Assembly (NCBI GenBank): GCA_021833365.1
Contig: JAKBFV010000001.1
Location: 2,750 to 66,749 of the forward strand
From: Pseudomonadota bacterium
GTDB lineage: Bacteria; Pseudomonadota; Gammaproteobacteria; Pseudomonadales; Moraxellaceae
Direction: 5' to 3'
Length of the DNA: 64,000 nt
Shown: positions 1-6,151 of the stretch, in pieces
Numbering within the stretch: the first letter of the stretch is position 1
Layout: every line of letters starts with the position of its first letter
The notes under the pieces: generated by a model
The model's input: the letters and a program-made list of their open reading frames with translations, nothing else
Told to the model about the DNA's origin: nothing
Database searches by the model: none
Translations under genes and position numbers: made by a program

Positions 1-996
1 AAAATTTTCGGCCACGATTGAGTCAGCATGCTCGCTAAAACTATTGAAGAGCTCACTCCATAAGTTCATGCGTCCGGCCATGATCAAACGCTCGAACGTT
101 TTAATCGCCCCATTTATGGATTCTCGGCATTTTTCGAACTCTGGATCAACCTTGGCGATGAAATTTCGGTGCTCCTTGAGTGCCTGCTGCAGAACACCGA
201 TATTCTCAGCCAGCAGTTCGCGCACTTTAACCTTGTTGCTTTCTATGATGTCTTCTCTGAATGTACCCAGTCTGGCGTGCAAAACTTGGGCAAGCGCCTG
301 CATCTGGCTGAACTCGAGCATGGCTCTGGTTAACGCGAAATGCTTCAGGTAATTGCGTTGCTGGATCACTAAGTCAGCGTCGCGCGATGGGTGGATGCTC
401 GTTTTCCCGGTGCCTGGACTTATCGCCAAGGACGAAAAGGCAAGCAACCCTTGGACACAGTGCCCCGGAAGAAGAACATCCATACCCAATACTGACTTCA
501 GAACATCCATTGTTTGCTTTAACGCAGTGCCAGCACTGCTATGGCTTTCCAGCGACTCCCGATCTTCATCAAACTCATATGCATCAGCATTGCCACGCAC
601 ATTGACGATTGGGCAAACTTGAGTGCCGCGGCGTAGGTATGAATGGATCTTTTCGGCCGTCGCCTTCTCCGGCTTTTTATTAGTTCCATTAACGTAGAAC
701 ACCAGATGGGCCTTGGCTATGGCCTCACGCACCATATGTGCATACTTGTTCTCATCGCCCTCGATGCCTGGAACATCAATTAGCTGAAAGGTTTTTCCCT
801 TGTAGTTGAGCGTATAGAGGGTGTTGCCTTTGGTGAAGTCTGCTGCGCCGGTGCCGATGATCCGCCCGTCTACTCGGCACACTTCTACTCTTTGCTTTTC
901 CAGTGATATTGCCGATTGCGTCAAAGCCGGGAATCGAGCACTCAGGAGATCCTCTAACTTTTCGGACGGACTGATCAATTCTATCGCACTTGTCAT
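1..996 (-). CDS. GTPase-like protein, distal part of a split P-loop GTPase (partial, 3' end beyond left edge)
   Basis: Not in the ORF track because it runs off the window. Hand translation from ATG 996-994 is open for all 332 codons down to nt 1 (MTSAIELISPSEKLEDLLSARF...). It contains a DxxG-type G3 motif (FQLIDVPGIEGDE) and a possible degenerate G4 (IVNVRGNAD), then a long helical region. The ATG lies 1 nt after the TAA of ORF 998-1561. AT-rich. Confidence 0.6.
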   Translation of the reverse strand, partial: MTSAIELISPSEKLEDLLSARFPALTQSAISLEKQRVEVCRVDGRIIGTGAADFTKGNTLYTLNYKGKTFQLIDVPGIEGDENKYAHMVREAIAKAHLVFYVNGTNKKPEKATAEKIHSYLRRGTQVCPIVNVRGNADAYEFDEDRESLESHSSAGTALKQTMDVLKSVLGMDVLLPGHCVQGLLAFSSLAISPGTGKTSIHPSRDADLVIQQRNYLKHFALTRAMLEFSQMQALAQVLHARLGTFREDIIESNKVKVRELLAENIGVLQQALKEHRNFIAKVDPEFEKCRESINGAIKTFERLIMAGRMNLWSELFNSFSEHADSIVAENF

Positions 997-997
997 G

Positions 998-1561
998 TTA
1001 GACTCCCACAAGCATGGCGAACGCACCCGTCACCACAACCCCCAGCGACGCGCCACCAATGGCAAACAGCCATAGTTTGCGTTTCATCCGGGCGGAGGAT
1101 TCCTCCTGCAGCATCCGACTCAATACAGCAGCGCCCTTTTTTATCGCTATAACTTCGGCAGCAAATTCTGCGTAAACACTTTTCAGTCCCTCGCTGACCT
1201 GATTCACGTGGTCAGAAAGCGCAAGTTCAAATTTCACTATATCCTGGGCATTCTGCTGCAGCAGTTTCTGACGGGAATCTTCGTTGAACAAGATGCGTAG
1301 CGACTCGATGATGGTGCTCTTGCCGGCATTAGTTTCACCGAAAAATGCTATGGTGAATTTTTCCCACTCAGCGTGCTGTTCTAGCAAATCCAATTCGCCA
1401 TCAAATCGAGCCTGGATTCCGCGCAGTCTTTCCATCATGTTGCTGAGTTCTTGTTTACCATCCTTATGTTCTACCTTAAGGTCGGCAACCTCCGTTATGG
1501 CAGCAGCGATGCTTTTTGAAACATCCTCGTACAGTCGACTAAACTCTTGACCCGTATTCAT
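998..1561 (-). CDS. coiled-coil P-loop (G1/Walker A) protein with C-terminal transmembrane anchor
   Basis: 187 aa. FFGETNAGKSTIIESL is a GxxxxGKS/T P-loop. The N-terminus is helical and the C-terminus has a hydrophobic helix (LWLFAIGGASLGVVVTGAFAMLVGV). The ATG at 1561 is preceded by a GGTGAGGG RBS. No DxxG or NKxD motif inside this ORF. Confidence 0.65.
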   Translation of the reverse strand: MNTGQEFSRLYEDVSKSIAAAITEVADLKVEHKDGKQELSNMMERLRGIQARFDGELDLLEQHAEWEKFTIAFFGETNAGKSTIIESLRILFNEDSRQKLLQQNAQDIVKFELALSDHVNQVSEGLKSVYAEFAAEVIAIKKGAAVLSRMLQEESSARMKRKLWLFAIGGASLGVVVTGAFAMLVGV

Positions 1562-1686
1562 CCCTCACCACCCCCATATTTTCCGACAGTCTGTCAGGAT
1601 TCTTATAAATTCGAATCCGTTGTCTTAGACAATCAAACAGCAAAATTCAACGCGATTGCTAAACCCAAAAGCGCAAACTTCACATT

Positions 1687-2253
1687 TTAAGCGCCTAAGA
1701 TAACACTAACAACGCACCCTATAGTACCGCCCAAAACAAATCCCATTACCGTCCCTGACCATCTTATAACCTCCAAGTGCGAACGTGTATTGTTCTCTAA
1801 ATTATCTCTGAACTGTTTGTCTTCCAATTTATTTAATGATTCAGATACAGACTTACCAATATAATCAGACAAGTCATCATTCAAAAAATCTTCAATCTTC
1901 CTCATTGCCTGATCGACAACATCCCATTCAATAAGTCTATCAAGTTGGCGAAGTTGATTACGTTGAGAGCATAGCTCATTAGCCAACAAATCTATAACGA
2001 CACTCTCTAGGTTATCAAAAAAACTATCCACGCATTGTTTTTTATTGTTCTCAGGAAGACTATTCCACGAATTGACATAAGCAGGGTATGCAACCTTAAG
2101 ACATGCATCCAGATGCGTTTTTATTGGTGACGATGCATTTAAAAATTCAAACTTTTCTTCAACAAGCCTTTTCCCAATACTTTCTAGGGATTTTGAGATG
2201 TCATGCGATTTAATAAAAACCCCCTTAAACCATCCAACATCAAACTCTTCCAA
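1687..2253 (-). CDS. hypothetical tail-anchored membrane protein
   Basis: 188-aa ORF in the AT-rich cluster. Acidic helical body with a single C-terminal hydrophobic helix (VMGFVLGGTIGCVVSVILGA). The start codon is TTG (2253), 17 nt after the stop of the upstream ORF. No recognisable family. Confidence 0.5.
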   Translation of the reverse strand: MEEFDVGWFKGVFIKSHDISKSLESIGKRLVEEKFEFLNASSPIKTHLDACLKVAYPAYVNSWNSLPENNKKQCVDSFFDNLESVVIDLLANELCSQRNQLRQLDRLIEWDVVDQAMRKIEDFLNDDLSDYIGKSVSESLNKLEDKQFRDNLENNTRSHLEVIRWSGTVMGFVLGGTIGCVVSVILGA

Positions 2254-2270
2254 AATAGCATCGCGAAGTT

Positions 2271-2867
2271 TTAATACGCTATCTTTTTTGACAGCTCAAC
2301 AAGTGATTTTCCAAAACAGTTCACAAAAGCCTTTTCAACGCTACCATCTCCAACAGCATTGGAAATGACAGCAATCTCATTACTATTCAATTTGTAATTG
2401 ATAATTTTGTCATGAACGAACTGCCGAACATGCTCACTCCAAAGCGACTCCAGCATTTCAGCAGCTTGCCGCTTATCTCCAAGTATCTTGTCCAGCCACA
2501 AGTACACCTTGTCCTTTGTATCTTTATCATGAGTTAGTTCATGCAATCGATTTCGAATTTCCTTTGAATTTATAATTTCACTTTTAACCCATGCGCCGAT
2601 TTCATTCGAAACTACTTTTTTATTTTTTTCAACAGTGCCATACATTTTTTCAATCGCAAACCAATCACACAAACCACCTACCAACGCTCCTTCGGCCGCA
2701 TGCAAAAGAATATCTAATATTAAACTTTTTCCAAAACGCTCAATAAAAAACAGCACAATCAACAACGAAACACCTGCCGCAAGAAGAATGGACAGGCTGA
2801 TCGTTTTTTTAACAAAGAATGGTCTACCTACACCCAAGAATGATTCAACCAGATTATTATTTGTCAC
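2271..2867 (-). CDS. membrane protein, DUF445-like N-terminal motif
   Basis: 198 aa with a GTG start. N-terminal TM helix (ISLSILLAAGVSLLIVLFFI) is followed by GALVGGLCDWFAIEKMYG. This resembles the conserved GGlADWFAV motif of DUF445/YjiN-type proteins, recalled from memory and not verified. Confidence 0.5.
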   Translation of the reverse strand: MTNNNLVESFLGVGRPFFVKKTISLSILLAAGVSLLIVLFFIERFGKSLILDILLHAAEGALVGGLCDWFAIEKMYGTVEKNKKVVSNEIGAWVKSEIINSKEIRNRLHELTHDKDTKDKVYLWLDKILGDKRQAAEMLESLWSEHVRQFVHDKIINYKLNSNEIAVISNAVGDGSVEKAFVNCFGKSLVELSKKIAY

Positions 2868-2960
2868 ATTTAATCAACCAGAAAGAGTTAACATTACACA
2901 TCTTAAACAAGCCCATTCATGTCATCATGCGACACAAACGCAACACCAATATTTGTCATT

Positions 2961-3419
2961 TTATTCATACAGATTATTCGCATACCTTTCTTCAATTTGC
3001 GCTACAACTTCCCCAAAAAATTTAATTTGAAACCGCACGTCTGCGATCTCTTTATGAAAATGTTCAGCATTTACCTTCAAGCGATCTTCAATCATTTCTA
3101 ACTTATTAACAGCTGCACTGATGCGAGCAGCTGCCCTTGCATCTCGATGCTTCTTGTCCAAAACATATTTTGGATCTTTGGCGGCAATTGACTCCTTAAA
3201 ATGCTTCAGCCCCATAAAAAATCGTGAGCATCCTGGAATAAACAATACCATTAATTCTGGAACATAAAATGCCTTATCTAGCACAGTCATTGGCCCATCT
3301 TCAAAAGCATGTCTTAGCTGATTCTTAACATCATTAAGGTCATGCTCAATTTGATCTTTTATACTGCGCAGATCTTCAGAATCCGTTGTTGTCATATTAA
3401 CATTACCTTCAATTTTCAC
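2961..3419 (-). CDS. hypothetical helical protein
   Basis: 152-aa ORF with a GTG start at 3419. The ATG at 3395 with an upstream GAAGG is a likely true start (144 aa). Charged helical sequence with one short hydrophobic stretch (VPELMVLFIPGCSRFFMGL). No family recognised. Confidence 0.5.
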   Translation of the reverse strand: MKIEGNVNMTTTDSEDLRSIKDQIEHDLNDVKNQLRHAFEDGPMTVLDKAFYVPELMVLFIPGCSRFFMGLKHFKESIAAKDPKYVLDKKHRDARAAARISAAVNKLEMIEDRLKVNAEHFHKEIADVRFQIKFFGEVVAQIEERYANNLYE

Positions 3420-3543
3420 TGACAGCCATTAACACACTTAATACCACAGCCTGTCTGATCACAATAGCAATCTAAAATACTAAGAAATTCTTTTAGACTT
3501 ATACGTCTTGACTATCAAAATCATCCAAATAAAAAAATAATGC

Positions 3544-3807
3544 TTACTCATCAACCTTATCTTGGTTTCTTTTAATGTATTCCAGCATCTCGTTCATTCT
3601 CTCTTTATCCGAGGACTCTGAGTGTTTTAGTTGAGGTGTGAATATTTTATCCAACATTCCAGCCTTACTTGAACTGATCTTCCCGCCGCATCGCGGGCAT
3701 CTTCTGGGTGGAGCAAAGAATGAAATCGCATCGCTCTTATAATGATGGATGGCGCTCCAGCTACAATTCTGGCATTTGAACTTTAATGTCCCAGGTGGCA
3801 TTACCAT
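3544..3807 (-). CDS. small Zn-ribbon protein
   Basis: The track ORF 3544-3894 overlaps the upstream gene. The ATG at 3807 sits 2 nt downstream of the WYL gene's stop (TAG, 3812-3810) and gives 87 aa: MVMPPGTLKFKCQNCSW...RRCPRCGG, i.e. two CxxC pairs (Zn ribbon) plus a charged C-terminal helix. Confidence 0.55.
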   Translation of the reverse strand: MVMPPGTLKFKCQNCSWSAIHHYKSDAISFFAPPRRCPRCGGKISSSKAGMLDKIFTPQLKHSESSDKERMNEMLEYIKRNQDKVDE

Positions 3808-3809
3808 AG

Positions 3810-4769
3810 CTATACATTCTCCTGTTCTTGCTGCTTGCCACTTTCTGCAAGATTTGGAGTGAGACGTTCTGCCTGCATGGCTCGTAGCCACCACTGCAGC
3901 TGCAGCGTATCCGCTACCGTTGCAGTGACTTTGACGCGACCATCCGGTTGCTTTTCCAGTTGCTGGTCTTCACTTAAGCGACATTCTGTCAAATGCTCTG
4001 CCGCCGCCTCTGAAAACAGCGCCTGCATGCATACCTGTTGGCCGTTGCCAAAGCCCATACCGCCCTGTTCGATGAATGCGTCGAGATCAAATTCTTCCGT
4101 TCTCTCTGCTCTCGCCTCCTGCATTTCAGCTGAGAACATACGGTGCATCGCGTAGCTGCGTATTCCCTCAGCCCCCTGCATTCGCGCTAGAAGGTATAAA
4201 ATAGGGCCGCGTTGTACCAGTCCTAGAGGATGCAGGCAGAGCCGCTGCGTGGCCTGTTTTGAGCGGCTCTCGTAAACCACGTCCACCTGGTGATTGAGCA
4301 GCAGAGCCTCTTGCACTTGTGCCAGCACCTTGGCGTTAATTTCGGGTGGAATCAACGGCTGATTGGCGGGAACAACCCTGACCTTATGAAACCAGGGTTT
4401 TTGTTCATGCTGCACCTGTTGCCGGGCATGTTCAAACCATGGACGCAATTCATCGAATACAATAGCCGGCATCAGGAGCTTCAGGTGCTCTTCAGCCATG
4501 AGAAAGACCAGTGCTTTACTCGGTTGTATGAGCGGTTGCAAGGGGGCTTTATCGGAGTCCATCCACCAACCTTGTGGATTCTCACCATCACTCTCAATGG
4601 GAAATATTTCTTTCAGTTCATTCAAATCACGCTGAATGGTTCGCAATGGAACATCAACATTAGCCAACTCTTTAAGTTGCCTTTCAATGTCACGGGTGCC
4701 AACACGTCGTGTTAAACATTGCAGAACCAATAATTGACGCTGCGTAACTTTTAAAGATTCTCCCTTCAT
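3810..4769 (-). CDS. WYL-domain transcriptional regulator (wHTH-WYL-WCX; YafY/BrxR/CapW type)
   Basis: 319 aa. N-terminal wHTH (LRTIQRDLNELKEIF). Central WYL-like segment (HPLGLVQRGPILYLLARMQGAEGIRSYAMHRM). The C-terminal extension has typical length for the family. ATG at 4769. Confidence 0.8.
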   Translation of the reverse strand: MKGESLKVTQRQLLVLQCLTRRVGTRDIERQLKELANVDVPLRTIQRDLNELKEIFPIESDGENPQGWWMDSDKAPLQPLIQPSKALVFLMAEEHLKLLMPAIVFDELRPWFEHARQQVQHEQKPWFHKVRVVPANQPLIPPEINAKVLAQVQEALLLNHQVDVVYESRSKQATQRLCLHPLGLVQRGPILYLLARMQGAEGIRSYAMHRMFSAEMQEARAERTEEFDLDAFIEQGGMGFGNGQQVCMQALFSEAAAEHLTECRLSEDQQLEKQPDGRVKVTATVADTLQLQWWLRAMQAERLTPNLAESGKQQEQENV

Positions 4770-5060
4770 GCTGACAACCTTCTGGCCATTAATAATGAAG
4801 GAATAATGACATTCACTTTACGACAATTCATCGTTGCTCTCCAAGCCGACCGCTGATGTGCATACCGCATAAGAGGTTGGTCGATATCCCCAACGAAAAC
4901 GTAAGAACCTGCCAAGGCTAGCATAATTAGTGTCTGCATCAAGATGGTTCTCATCATGTTCAGCTCTGAATTTTTGCATCTTAAAATTTATTTCATTTAA
5001 CGCCGATTCATGCTCCTGCTGAACCGGCCTCAAAGAGAACTACATATCAATGAAATGTGG

Positions 5061-5906
5061 TCACATGGCCTGAATTTCTTGTGTGCGTTTCTGTGTCAAG
5101 CTGAGCAGACACTGCAAAGCCGCCCGCTGGGCATCAGCTTCAGACGCATTCATGGATCCACAGGAGGCGTCTCGCTGCTTGATCCAGGCGCGTTGCTGAT
5201 CGCGCACTCCTTGCCGTAGCGCTGGTCCCAACCTCGCCATCATTGCCTTGTACGATTCATTGAGCTGTAGGTCTGCCTGATTGTAGGCATCAAGCAAGAT
5301 TGCTGTCGTTGGAATGGTCGCTGCCTGTGTTGCCGGCGCACTCACCACTGGAGCTGGAGCTGGAGCTGGAGCTGGAGCTGGAGCTGGAGCTGGAGCTGGA
5401 GTCGGGGTGTTGTTGGCCAGGGTGGGCGCGCTACTAGTGGCATACTCTGCCTCATATTGCGCCAGAGTCTTGCTATTATGTTCCTGGATGGCTCCGATCA
5501 CAGCGAGGATCACAAACAACGCAGCGGCGGATGCCAGCATCGAAAAGGCAGCGATGTCCCATTTTCTCTGTACCGCCCTGAAGTGATCAACATCGCGCCA
5601 TGTGCCATTTCGCCAGGCCCACTCGCGCCCCTTCACCGCCAGCACGAAAGGCATGACCAAACCCAGCACCGGCACCAGTGACAAGAGACCCACCCATGTC
5701 TTGTTGCCGATAGCCCAGATCAGATTGAGAAACAGCGCTCCCCACGACCATCCTGCCACCCCTTCAGGCAGAGGTGGGGGTGGTGGAGAAGGCTGACTTG
5801 CTACCTGCGCTGCCGTCTGTCCTTGCGCAAGCGCTCCGCAATGCGGACAACTCAGCGCGCTATCATGGATTTGCTGACCACATCCCCTGCAAAACATCAT
5901 GCCCAT
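5061..5906 (-). CDS. Zn-ribbon / membrane / DUF1311 (LprI-like) domain protein
   Basis: 281 aa. N-terminal double CxxC (FCRGCGQ...CPHCG), a Pro-rich linker, 2-3 hydrophobic helices and a (PA)n linker. The C-terminus carries the QRAWIKQRDASC signature typical of DUF1311. RBS GAGGAG upstream of ATG 5906. Confidence 0.7.
   Translation of the reverse strand: MGMMFCRGCGQQIHDSALSCPHCGALAQGQTAAQVASQPSPPPPPLPEGVAGWSWGALFLNLIWAIGNKTWVGLLSLVPVLGLVMPFVLAVKGREWAWRNGTWRDVDHFRAVQRKWDIAAFSMLASAAALFVILAVIGAIQEHNSKTLAQYEAEYATSSAPTLANNTPTPAPAPAPAPAPAPAPAPVVSAPATQAATIPTTAILLDAYNQADLQLNESYKAMMARLGPALRQGVRDQQRAWIKQRDASCGSMNASEADAQRAALQCLLSLTQKRTQEIQAM
5348..5401. repeat. perfect tandem hexanucleotide repeat (CTGGAG)x9, encoding the (PA)n linker on the minus strand
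   Basis: Read directly from the sequence: ctggag repeated nine times with no interruption, in frame within CDS 5061-5906. Confidence 0.9.
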
Positions 5907-5933
5907 TTTTAAGTCTCCTCGAAGATTTTCAGC

Positions 5934-6151
5934 TCAAACGCAGTATTTTTGGGTGAATTCCTGGTCGTTGGTACCGGTCAGGTAGATGATGCCTTCGACC
6001 AGGGCGACCAAAGAAGGAATCCAGGTCCAGAAAAACACCAGGTACAGGAAGCCGAGGCCGGTTTTCCCGCAATAAAACTTGTGGGCGCCAAAGCCGCCCA
6101 GGAAGAAGGCCAGCAGGATGGCCGTTACTCGACTGCGCGGATTAGGCGCAT
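5934..6151 (-). pseudogene. TM2-domain protein gene, 5'-truncated fragment
   Basis: Hand translation of the minus strand gives ...AILLAFFLGGFGAHKFYCGKTGLGFLYLVFFWTWIPSLVALVEGIIYLTGTNDQEFTQKYCV*, with the stop at 5936-5934. GGFGAHKFY-G is the TM2-domain signature. The frame has no start codon and runs into the MITE-like element, where a stop lies at about 6162. Confidence 0.6.

Follow-up and report, generated by a model that had tools for sequence, protein, structure and literature searches.

The 64,000-nucleotide (nt) stretch of DNA analyzed here, referred to below as the window, spans positions 2,750 to 66,749 of contig JAKBFV010000001.1 (GenBank assembly GCA_021833365.1, a pseudomonadotal bacterium placed in the Moraxellaceae). 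It begins with two adjacent minus-strand open reading frames (ORFs), ORF A and ORF B, which are very probably the leoC and leoB genes of a leoC-leoB-leoA operon and encode one bacterial dynamin-like protein (DLP) made as two polypeptides. ORF A (LeoC) is predicted to start with N-terminal helices, followed by strand beta1, the P-loop, and helix alpha1; a long helix then leads to a C-terminal tail-anchor transmembrane (TM) helix. The part of ORF B (LeoB) inside the window, its 5' 60%, covers switch 1, G3, the G4 position, and the start of the helical neck/trunk. The features of the two genes and of their junction are as follows.

1561..998, minus strand: leoC (ORF A), 187 amino acids (aa); from the ORF list and PADLOC model LeoC PDLC03843
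1339-1316, minus strand: G1/P-loop GETNAGKS, LeoC residues 75-82; from the sequence
1078-1001, minus strand: LeoC C-terminal hydrophobic helix KLWLFAIGGASLGVVVTGAFAMLVGV, residues 162-187, the last 26 residues, ending at the stop; from hydropathy
1007-994, minus strand: putative coupling junction, with GGGAG at 1007-1003, within the final leoC codons and 6 nt ahead of the leoB ATG; from the sequence
1000-998, minus strand: leoC stop codon TAA; from the sequence
996..1, minus strand: leoB (ORF B), first 332 of 558 codons, cut at the window edge; from PADLOC model LeoB PDLC03842
870-832, minus strand: switch-1-like motif DGRIIGTGAADFT, LeoB residues 43-55; from alignment
777-757, minus strand: G3/switch 2 DVPGIEG (within LIDVPGIEG), LeoB residues 74-80, with D74 at 777-775; from alignment
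603-592, minus strand: G4-position N-V-R-G (within NVRGNAD), LeoB residues 132-135, with N132 at 603-601; from alignment

An initial annotation, made from the letters alone, had placed the G1 motif on ORF 998-1561 and LIDVPGIEG on the next ORF, had noted the hydrophobic end of ORF A, and had read the junction as TAA (1000-998), one nucleotide, and ATG (996-994) in differing frames; all of this agrees with the minus-strand sequence. The single base that separates the two codons is a C (997), and the best 19-aa Kyte-Doolittle mean of the LeoC tail is 1.98. The division of G1 and DxPG between two ORFs also stands, but the distance between the motifs is approximately 186 residues and not the 170 given there. 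At the domain level, positions 1-18 of the Pfam family Dynamin_N match ORF A and positions 67-160 match ORF B, which indicates one domain cut in two and not a chance arrangement.

All data to the left of the window were taken from six ENA metagenome contigs (L001 to L006), which were picked as encoding a protein identical to ORF A and which are 99.9 to 99.98% identical to window positions 1-6000, with one gap each. The gene row of these contigs consists of genes for a 281-aa protein, a WYL regulator, a 144/152-aa protein, and a DUF445 protein (393 aa), then ORF A (187 aa) and ORF B (558 aa), and finally a 580-aa dynamin-like gene; the last, leoA, lies outside the window and overlaps the end of leoB by 29 nt. 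The identity of the three genes is documented by a number of matches. (i) The PADLOC models for LeoC, LeoB, and LeoA were matched with E values of 7.6e-65, 1.5e-201 (full-length copy in L003, residues 8-553 of 558), and 4.2e-267, respectively. (ii) The 580-aa protein matches LeoA of enterotoxigenic Escherichia coli (ETEC; PDB 4AUR) over residues 1-568 (E 6.5e-248) and passes the NCBIfam model NF041922, "LeoA/HP0731 family dynamin-like GTPase," with 607 bits against a cutoff of 325 bits. (iii) On the chromosome of an environmental E. coli strain, RefSeq names three genes in matching order, leoC (205 aa), leoB (571 aa), and leoA; over the full lengths, ORF A shares 40% identity (E 3e-49) with the RefSeq E. 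coli LeoC, and ORF B shares 46% (E 2e-170) with the RefSeq E. coli LeoB. The link to E. coli was drawn through one surveyed locus (L031) and by protein comparison; a megablast search of window positions 1-3500 against E. coli genomes gave no match. LeoB itself (558 aa) has no G1 motif and carries the DxPG motif together with the remaining dynamin-like protein, including a glycine-rich hydrophobic stretch (the paddle) at about residues 425-467, outside the window, with a best 19-aa hydropathy of 1.78 at residue 447. The initial annotation had offered two readings, one of which was a genuine two-subunit GTPase of the LeoB/LeoC kind; the PADLOC and RefSeq matches favor that reading and place the split in the LeoC/LeoB family itself rather than in an analogue of it. 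A split LeoC/LeoB dynamin-like protein is already known.

The position at which the chain is broken can be read from a comparison with undivided relatives. Compact single-chain relatives read ...AFFGETNAGKSTIIETFRILF, then 5 to 12 residues, then DGxIVGDGxxDFTxxYxEYxxxxxGxxFTLIDVPGIEG, with 46 to 67 residues between G1 and G3. In the split form, LeoC runs approximately 90 residues past alpha1 and then into its TM tail, and LeoB starts approximately 40 residues before the DG...DFT motif, so that the cut falls in the loop between alpha1 and switch 1. The D-[FY]-T motif ends in a threonine (LeoB T55) that is invariant in 56 of 56 sequences and lies 19 residues ahead of the G3 Asp, the position expected for G2; alignment and model together place switch 1 on LeoB, with a probable catalytic role for T55. 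In other single-chain relatives the same loop holds insertions of approximately 40 to 300 residues, and none in some, which indicates that it tolerates insertions. A TM-grade segment between G1 and G3 was found in 0 of 16 single-chain loci (best 19-aa hydropathy, 1.26) and in none of the single-chain representatives from the LeoB search. Two Flavobacteriaceae loci (L069 and L072) encode single-chain LeoBC proteins of 733 to 744 aa with a G1-G3 spacing of 176 residues, in which a segment rich in aromatic residues and of only moderate hydrophobicity (FWVQWLNVFRSWFGLLPILFF) aligns with the TM tail of LeoC; these may represent an insertion-bearing but uncut state.

A phmmer search of LeoB against the PDB sequences gave no match, and kinship to solved DLPs is visible at the fold level only. 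For fold modeling with AlphaFold2 we used a Duganella locus (L018), one of three in which leoC and leoB are in the same frame with a stop codon as the sole separator; the TAA was read as Q to give a 747-aa LeoC-Q-LeoB chain, and the alignment supplied to the model contained read-throughs, single-chain relatives, LeoC rows, and LeoB rows. The model had a mean predicted local distance difference test (pLDDT) score of 86.2 and a predicted template modeling (pTM) score of 0.74. Its elements follow in the order two N-terminal helices, beta1 (71-77), the P-loop, alpha1 (83-93), a 74-residue helix, a low-confidence TM helix across the junction, a returning LeoB helix (202-232), beta2, beta3, DVPG, alpha2, and beta4 onward, with the switch-1 threonine preceding beta2. 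As modeled, this is the normal G-domain order with an inserted helical hairpin. The paddle region of LeoB has low pLDDT and is flanked by long helices on both sides. Foldseek matches of the LeoC plus LeoB model in the PDB comprised BDLP, SynDLP, IniA, and Campylobacter DLP1/2 (probability 1.00, E 7e-9 to 1e-5), and also Mx proteins (MxA/MxB), OPA1, and mitofusins, the best being BDLP 2J69 (E 6.6e-9). The DVPG region, which the initial annotation had considered might prove foreign to a GTPase fold, lies within a dynamin-type GTPase fold in this model.

The motif at the G4 position is unusual. The G3 DVPG of LeoB aligns with DTPG of LeoA, and N132 aligns with the N of LeoA NKMD, so that the "possible G4" proposed earlier at NVRGNAD is correct in position; its motif, however, reads N-V-R-G and is noncanonical. 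Across split and unsplit sequences the Asn is invariant (56/56), and the R and the G are each present in 41 of 56. N-V-R-G replaces N/TKxD across the whole LeoBC clade, split or not, and the partner LeoA keeps NKMD.

Homology to the single-chain relatives and the read-through fusion model suggest that the nucleotide pocket would be completed in trans by the two polypeptides. LeoC and LeoB might instead be separate proteins that form no composite G domain, with LeoC acting as an independent small P-loop regulator anchored in the membrane and LeoB as a scaffold free of nucleotide. Such an arrangement would suit the absence of biochemical support for a LeoC-LeoB complex and the weak matches of ORF A alone to AAA_15/SMC-type P-loop families. 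We nevertheless consider it very unlikely. In the single-chain relatives, GETNAGKS and DGxIxGxGxxDFT...DVPGIEG belong to one G domain at the short spacing given above, the invariant switch 1, G3, and G4-position Asn on LeoB would be purposeless without a P-loop, and the fusion model presents one canonical G-domain topology with high confidence.

To establish how widespread the split is, we searched for homologues of both proteins and surveyed loci at the rate of one genome per species. The LeoC search (E <= 0.001; length band, 0.55 to 1.75 times the query length) returned 952 homologues, which among the matches listed are mostly 185 to 255 aa long and end in a common RKLWLFAxGG...G tail. In the LeoB search, made without a length limit, the 57 closest representative clusters were almost all approximately 530 to 580 aa long, with DVPG at position 57-104 and no G1; single chains with GETNAGKS before DVPG appeared only among more distant LeoB relatives (E ~1e-40 and weaker). 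The species survey recovered 80 loci, of which 58 are split and 16 are single chain, with 6 cut or undetermined. Split loci were found in Pseudomonadota, Bacillota, Spirochaetota, Elusimicrobia, Verrucomicrobia, and one member of the Bacteroidota, and leoC-leoB-leoA synteny is kept in nearly all loci with enough DNA. Their junctions vary: the frame offset is 0, +1, or +2 in 14, 18, and 26 loci, respectively; gaps range from -7 to +57 nt; all three stop codons occur; and the 1-nt spacing seen in the window recurs in 14 other species loci. Of the 58 split loci, 56 encode a LeoC with a TM-grade tail.

These data bear on the possibility that programmed frameshifting or stop read-through yields a single-chain DLP with an internal hydrophobic helix, as the adjacency of the ORFs, and a common frame in 14 loci with a stop or a short in-frame gap between, might suggest. 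That possibility is highly improbable. The split loci show all three frame offsets and gaps of up to 57 nt, no conserved slippery sequence occurs at their junctions, and every leoB starts at a codon of its own, which a Shine-Dalgarno-like string often accompanies. In addition, were a single-pass TM helix to lie within the G domain, the membrane would separate the two halves, and none of the 16 single-chain relatives carries a TM-grade segment at the site. Two apparent LeoC-LeoB fusions were encountered. One (L045:1028-3118, 726 aa, from an Oxalobacteraceae metagenome-assembled genome [MAG]) lacks a TM segment and is nested in the split group, which points to a secondary re-fusion or a MAG artifact. 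The other (P0123, 732 aa) is read out of frame through the TM region (RKLWLTGMCPDMQSPRKTG...) and looks like a frameshifted gene call.

The second reading of the initial annotation was a recent frameshift that killed the gene; in its wider form, a recent frameshift or nonsense lesion in a formerly single dynamin-like gene would make the locus a pseudogene. The two ORFs are indeed in different frames and 1 nt apart, the more distant relatives are single chain, and a true homopolymer frameshift lies 1.3 kb away in the DUF445 gene of the window. Yet we assign this explanation a probability close to nil, on the following grounds. (i) The homologues are not uniformly single ORFs: the nearest relatives all have two ORFs, those with over 70% identity are not mostly single ORFs, and the 58 split species loci have each their own stops, starts, and frame offsets. 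(ii) The catalytic motifs are invariant on both halves, and the TM tail is conserved. GETNAGKS is invariant in 24 LeoC homologues and essentially invariant in a second alignment; in LeoB, the D, G, G, G, D, and T of DGxI[IV]G[TD]GxxD[FY]T and the D, P, G, I, E, and G of D[VIL]PGIEG are invariant in 56 of 56 split and unsplit relatives. These alignments indicate strong purifying selection on both LeoC and LeoB. (iii) Split forms make up one old tree group. In a tree built from the LeoB-equivalent part, the 40 split sequences all belong to a single group (Shimodaira-Hasegawa-like approximate likelihood ratio test [SH-aLRT] value, 86) with one unsplit sequence nested inside, and the split/unsplit state changes 2 times, compared with a mean of 11.9 for shuffled labels (0 of 500 shuffles as low). 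This grouping fits one old fission followed by horizontal spread. (iv) There is no homopolymer at the junction, which is identical in ten independent assemblies.

Those assemblies, four of them contigs of separate Logan sequencing runs (mine-drainage metagenomes) that span 900-2400 with zero junction differences and six the ENA contigs, reproduce the junction letter for letter and, with the 1-nt geometry of the 14 other species, leave virtually no room for a sequencing or assembly error at 994-1000 that mimics a split, for which one probable indel error or variant nearby (A6 versus A7 at 2284-2289) might have spoken. The initial annotation had proposed to look in read pile-ups for a homopolymer or indel error; the sequence has no homopolymer there, the contigs of the four runs and the ENA contigs show no indel, and the leoC/leoB junction is not an assembly artifact.

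The survey also yielded several observations on individual loci and on LeoC itself. Two loci appear genuinely damaged: in L019 (Ottowia beijingensis), leoB is interrupted, the first ORF being only 152 aa long and LeoB homology resuming further downstream, and in L023 (a Methyloglobulus MAG), leoC is directly followed by leoA, with no leoB. LeoC homologues range from 167 to 327 aa, mainly through a variable number of ~11-residue "ESSAR"-type repeats just before the TM tail (LeoC alignment columns ~187-255; loci L008, L016, L037, and others). The LeoC of the window is the minimal version of this region. Repeat number would vary the length of a stalk between the G domain and the membrane. A tblastn search of LeoC against plasmids gave 9 weak partial matches only, which suggests that the leoCBA system is mainly chromosomal.

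With respect to expression, a scan of the junction on the leoC/leoB strand revealed no promoter-like or terminator-like site. Together with the GGGAG before the leoB ATG, this makes translational coupling of leoC and leoB plausible; in many related loci, too, the start of leoB is preceded by a purine-rich GGAG/GGGG string. Upstream of leoC there is one candidate operon promoter.

1712-1684, minus strand: weak sigma-70-like site, TTGTTA, 17 nt, TAAAAT; from a motif scan

Such sites are not enriched in the region (5 found, compared with 6.9 expected from shuffles).

The neighborhood of the genes differs from that of the rest of the window. The G+C content of positions 1-5000 is 36 to 50%, compared with 57 to 67% in most of the remaining window, and with its AT-rich first 5 kb the cassette looks horizontally acquired. 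Its left flank varies among the contigs, with BrxA/BrxE/BrxR in one (L004) and an IS21 element plus a DUF499 gene in others; these differences suggest rearrangement within a defense island, and the context as a whole fits a defense-island location. Immediately upstream of leoC, the DUF445 gene is broken in the window into ORFs of 198 aa (2867..2271) and 188 aa (2253..1687). The break, at 2284-2289, coincides with an A6 run on the strand of the gene, the minus strand (T6 on the plus strand). The run is A7 in each of the six ENA contigs and in the contigs from all four sequencing runs, in which the gene is intact at 393 aa (359 aa as called in L001); the shorter run in the assembly of the window probably reflects an assembly error or a minority variant. 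The DUF445, 152-aa, and 281-aa proteins were considered as conserved partners of leoCBA and rejected, since they occur in none of the 80 species loci. A WYL-domain regulator lies at most 1.5 kb upstream of leoC in six other species loci (L008, L010, L011, L012, L013, and L022), and the WYL gene of the window, at 3810-4769, is further upstream than in those six; the WYL protein may be a recurrent leoCBA regulator.

The following mechanism can be proposed. LeoC would supply the N-terminal neck helices, beta1, the P-loop, alpha1, and then a long helix ending in the tail-anchor TM helix, and LeoB would supply an N-terminal helix, switch 1 with its invariant D-F-T, G3 (DVPG), and the motif at the G4 position, along with what remains of the G domain, the helical neck/trunk, and the glycine-rich hydrophobic paddle. 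The TAA-C-ATG junction and the GGGAG string would couple translation, so that equal amounts of the two halves are produced and come together at the inner membrane. We infer that LeoC and LeoB assemble there in trans and use nucleotide, and that their biological role would be nucleotide-dependent membrane remodeling by the assembled LeoBC together with LeoA, its soluble partner. A single-pass anchor partway through a cytoplasmic domain would be topologically possible only where the chain is cut, and this need for a chain break would explain why the fission has been retained. We propose tentatively, as a possible interpretation on which we would not insist, that the fission is both a topological necessity and a control point: the active site would exist only where membrane-inserted LeoC meets LeoB, making turnover conditional on membrane assembly. 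The pattern of a TM-grade helix at the break in 56 of 58 split forms, versus 0 of 16 single-chain forms, fits this proposal.

Several points weigh against our reading of the locus as the leoC-leoB part of a split DLP operon. (i) The DNA in the window holds 60% of leoB and no leoA, the remainder being taken from the 99.9 to 99.98% identical contigs. (ii) The fold model is an artificial fusion through the stop codon of a relative that is approximately 50% identical in LeoC and in LeoB; the alignment behind it included single-chain homologues, which guided the folding, and it comes without an inter-residue error map. (iii) The G4 motif of LeoB lacks the K and the guanine-specifying Asp of [N/T]KxD in register. 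With this Asp missing, GTP specificity is not established; the label GTPase for LeoBC derives from homology, and N-V-R-G might mean that a nucleotide other than GTP is used. (iv) LeoC and LeoB could not be purified by Michie et al. 2014 (PMC4159319). (v) The putative antiphage function derives from published work on relatives and not on the locus itself.

The identification leaves current knowledge unchanged, as the split was described in 2014, is modeled in PADLOC and DefenseFinder, and is named by the NCBI pipeline in E. coli. Its practical value lies in correct annotation: split P-loop genes of the LeoC/LeoB kind should not be called pseudogenes. In public databases, LeoC homologues are mostly named "hypothetical protein," only 1 of the 120 matches listed being named LeoC, and some bear misleading labels, among them "DNA repair ATPase RecN," "ABC-type ... 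ATPase," and "histidine kinase"; neither LeoB nor LeoC is covered by a model in NCBIfam. What the present analysis adds are incremental refinements, namely, the break position, switch 1 on LeoB, the noncanonical G4, the TM helix only in split forms, and one old fission. Of these, the break in the alpha1/switch-1 loop, the placement of switch 1, and the restriction of the TM-grade helix to split forms should be useful for studies of LeoBC assembly.

The closest known system is that of ETEC H10407, in which Michie et al. 2014 (PLoS One 9:e107211, PMC4159319) described a contiguous dynamin-like gene split into leoC and leoB. They reported a LeoC of 206 aa with a P-loop and a 22-aa C-terminal membrane anchor and a LeoB of 572 aa with DxxG, a membrane-binding region, and the GTPase effector domain (GED). 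The split was resequenced for certainty and is conserved in other bacteria (PMC4159319); on the reason for it, the same article offers only general speculation. The architecture and the leoC-leoB-leoA order are alike in the locus analyzed here, with a LeoC of 187 aa compared with 206 aa and a LeoB of 558 aa compared with 572 aa. The two differ in several respects. The host here is an organism from a mine-drainage metagenome with a G+C content of approximately 60 to 65%, and the operon is on an AT-rich island. No tia gene adjoins it, and its neighbors are the WYL regulator, the DUF445 gene, and other defense genes. The junction is TAA plus 1 nt, whereas that of E. coli leoC/leoB is TAG plus 9 nt. 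Finally, LeoC was stated to include switch 1 (PMC4159319), whereas our alignment and model place it on LeoB, a placement with no solved structure behind it.

LeoA together with LeoBC constitutes the Eleos antiphage system, formerly "Dynamins" in defense catalogues (PADLOC/DefenseFinder; bioRxiv 10.1101/2022.12.12.520048). The LeoC, LeoB, and LeoA models all match here (E 1e-65 to 1e-267), and the locus lies beside other defense genes. The catalogued two-gene form has a single-chain LeoBC, whereas the form described here is a three-gene split one, to which an antiphage role would apply by analogy. Among DLPs of known structure, Nostoc BDLP (2J68/2J69), Campylobacter DLP1/DLP2 (5OWV), SynDLP, and IniA share with the LeoC plus LeoB model the G domain, the helical neck/trunk, and the hydrophobic paddle, and they too are paired with a second DLP gene; unlike LeoC/LeoB, they are single chains with a canonical G4, and no TM anchor emerges from their G domains. 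Michie et al. (PMC4159319) drew a comparison with mitochondrial Mgm1/OPA1 in its long isoform, likewise a DLP that is anchored in the membrane and works with a soluble DLP partner; OPA1 also appears among the fold matches of our model. In Mgm1, however, the anchor is N-terminal to the whole G domain and part of one chain, whereas in LeoC it is a predicted tail anchor on a separate chain, located in the alpha1/switch-1 loop.

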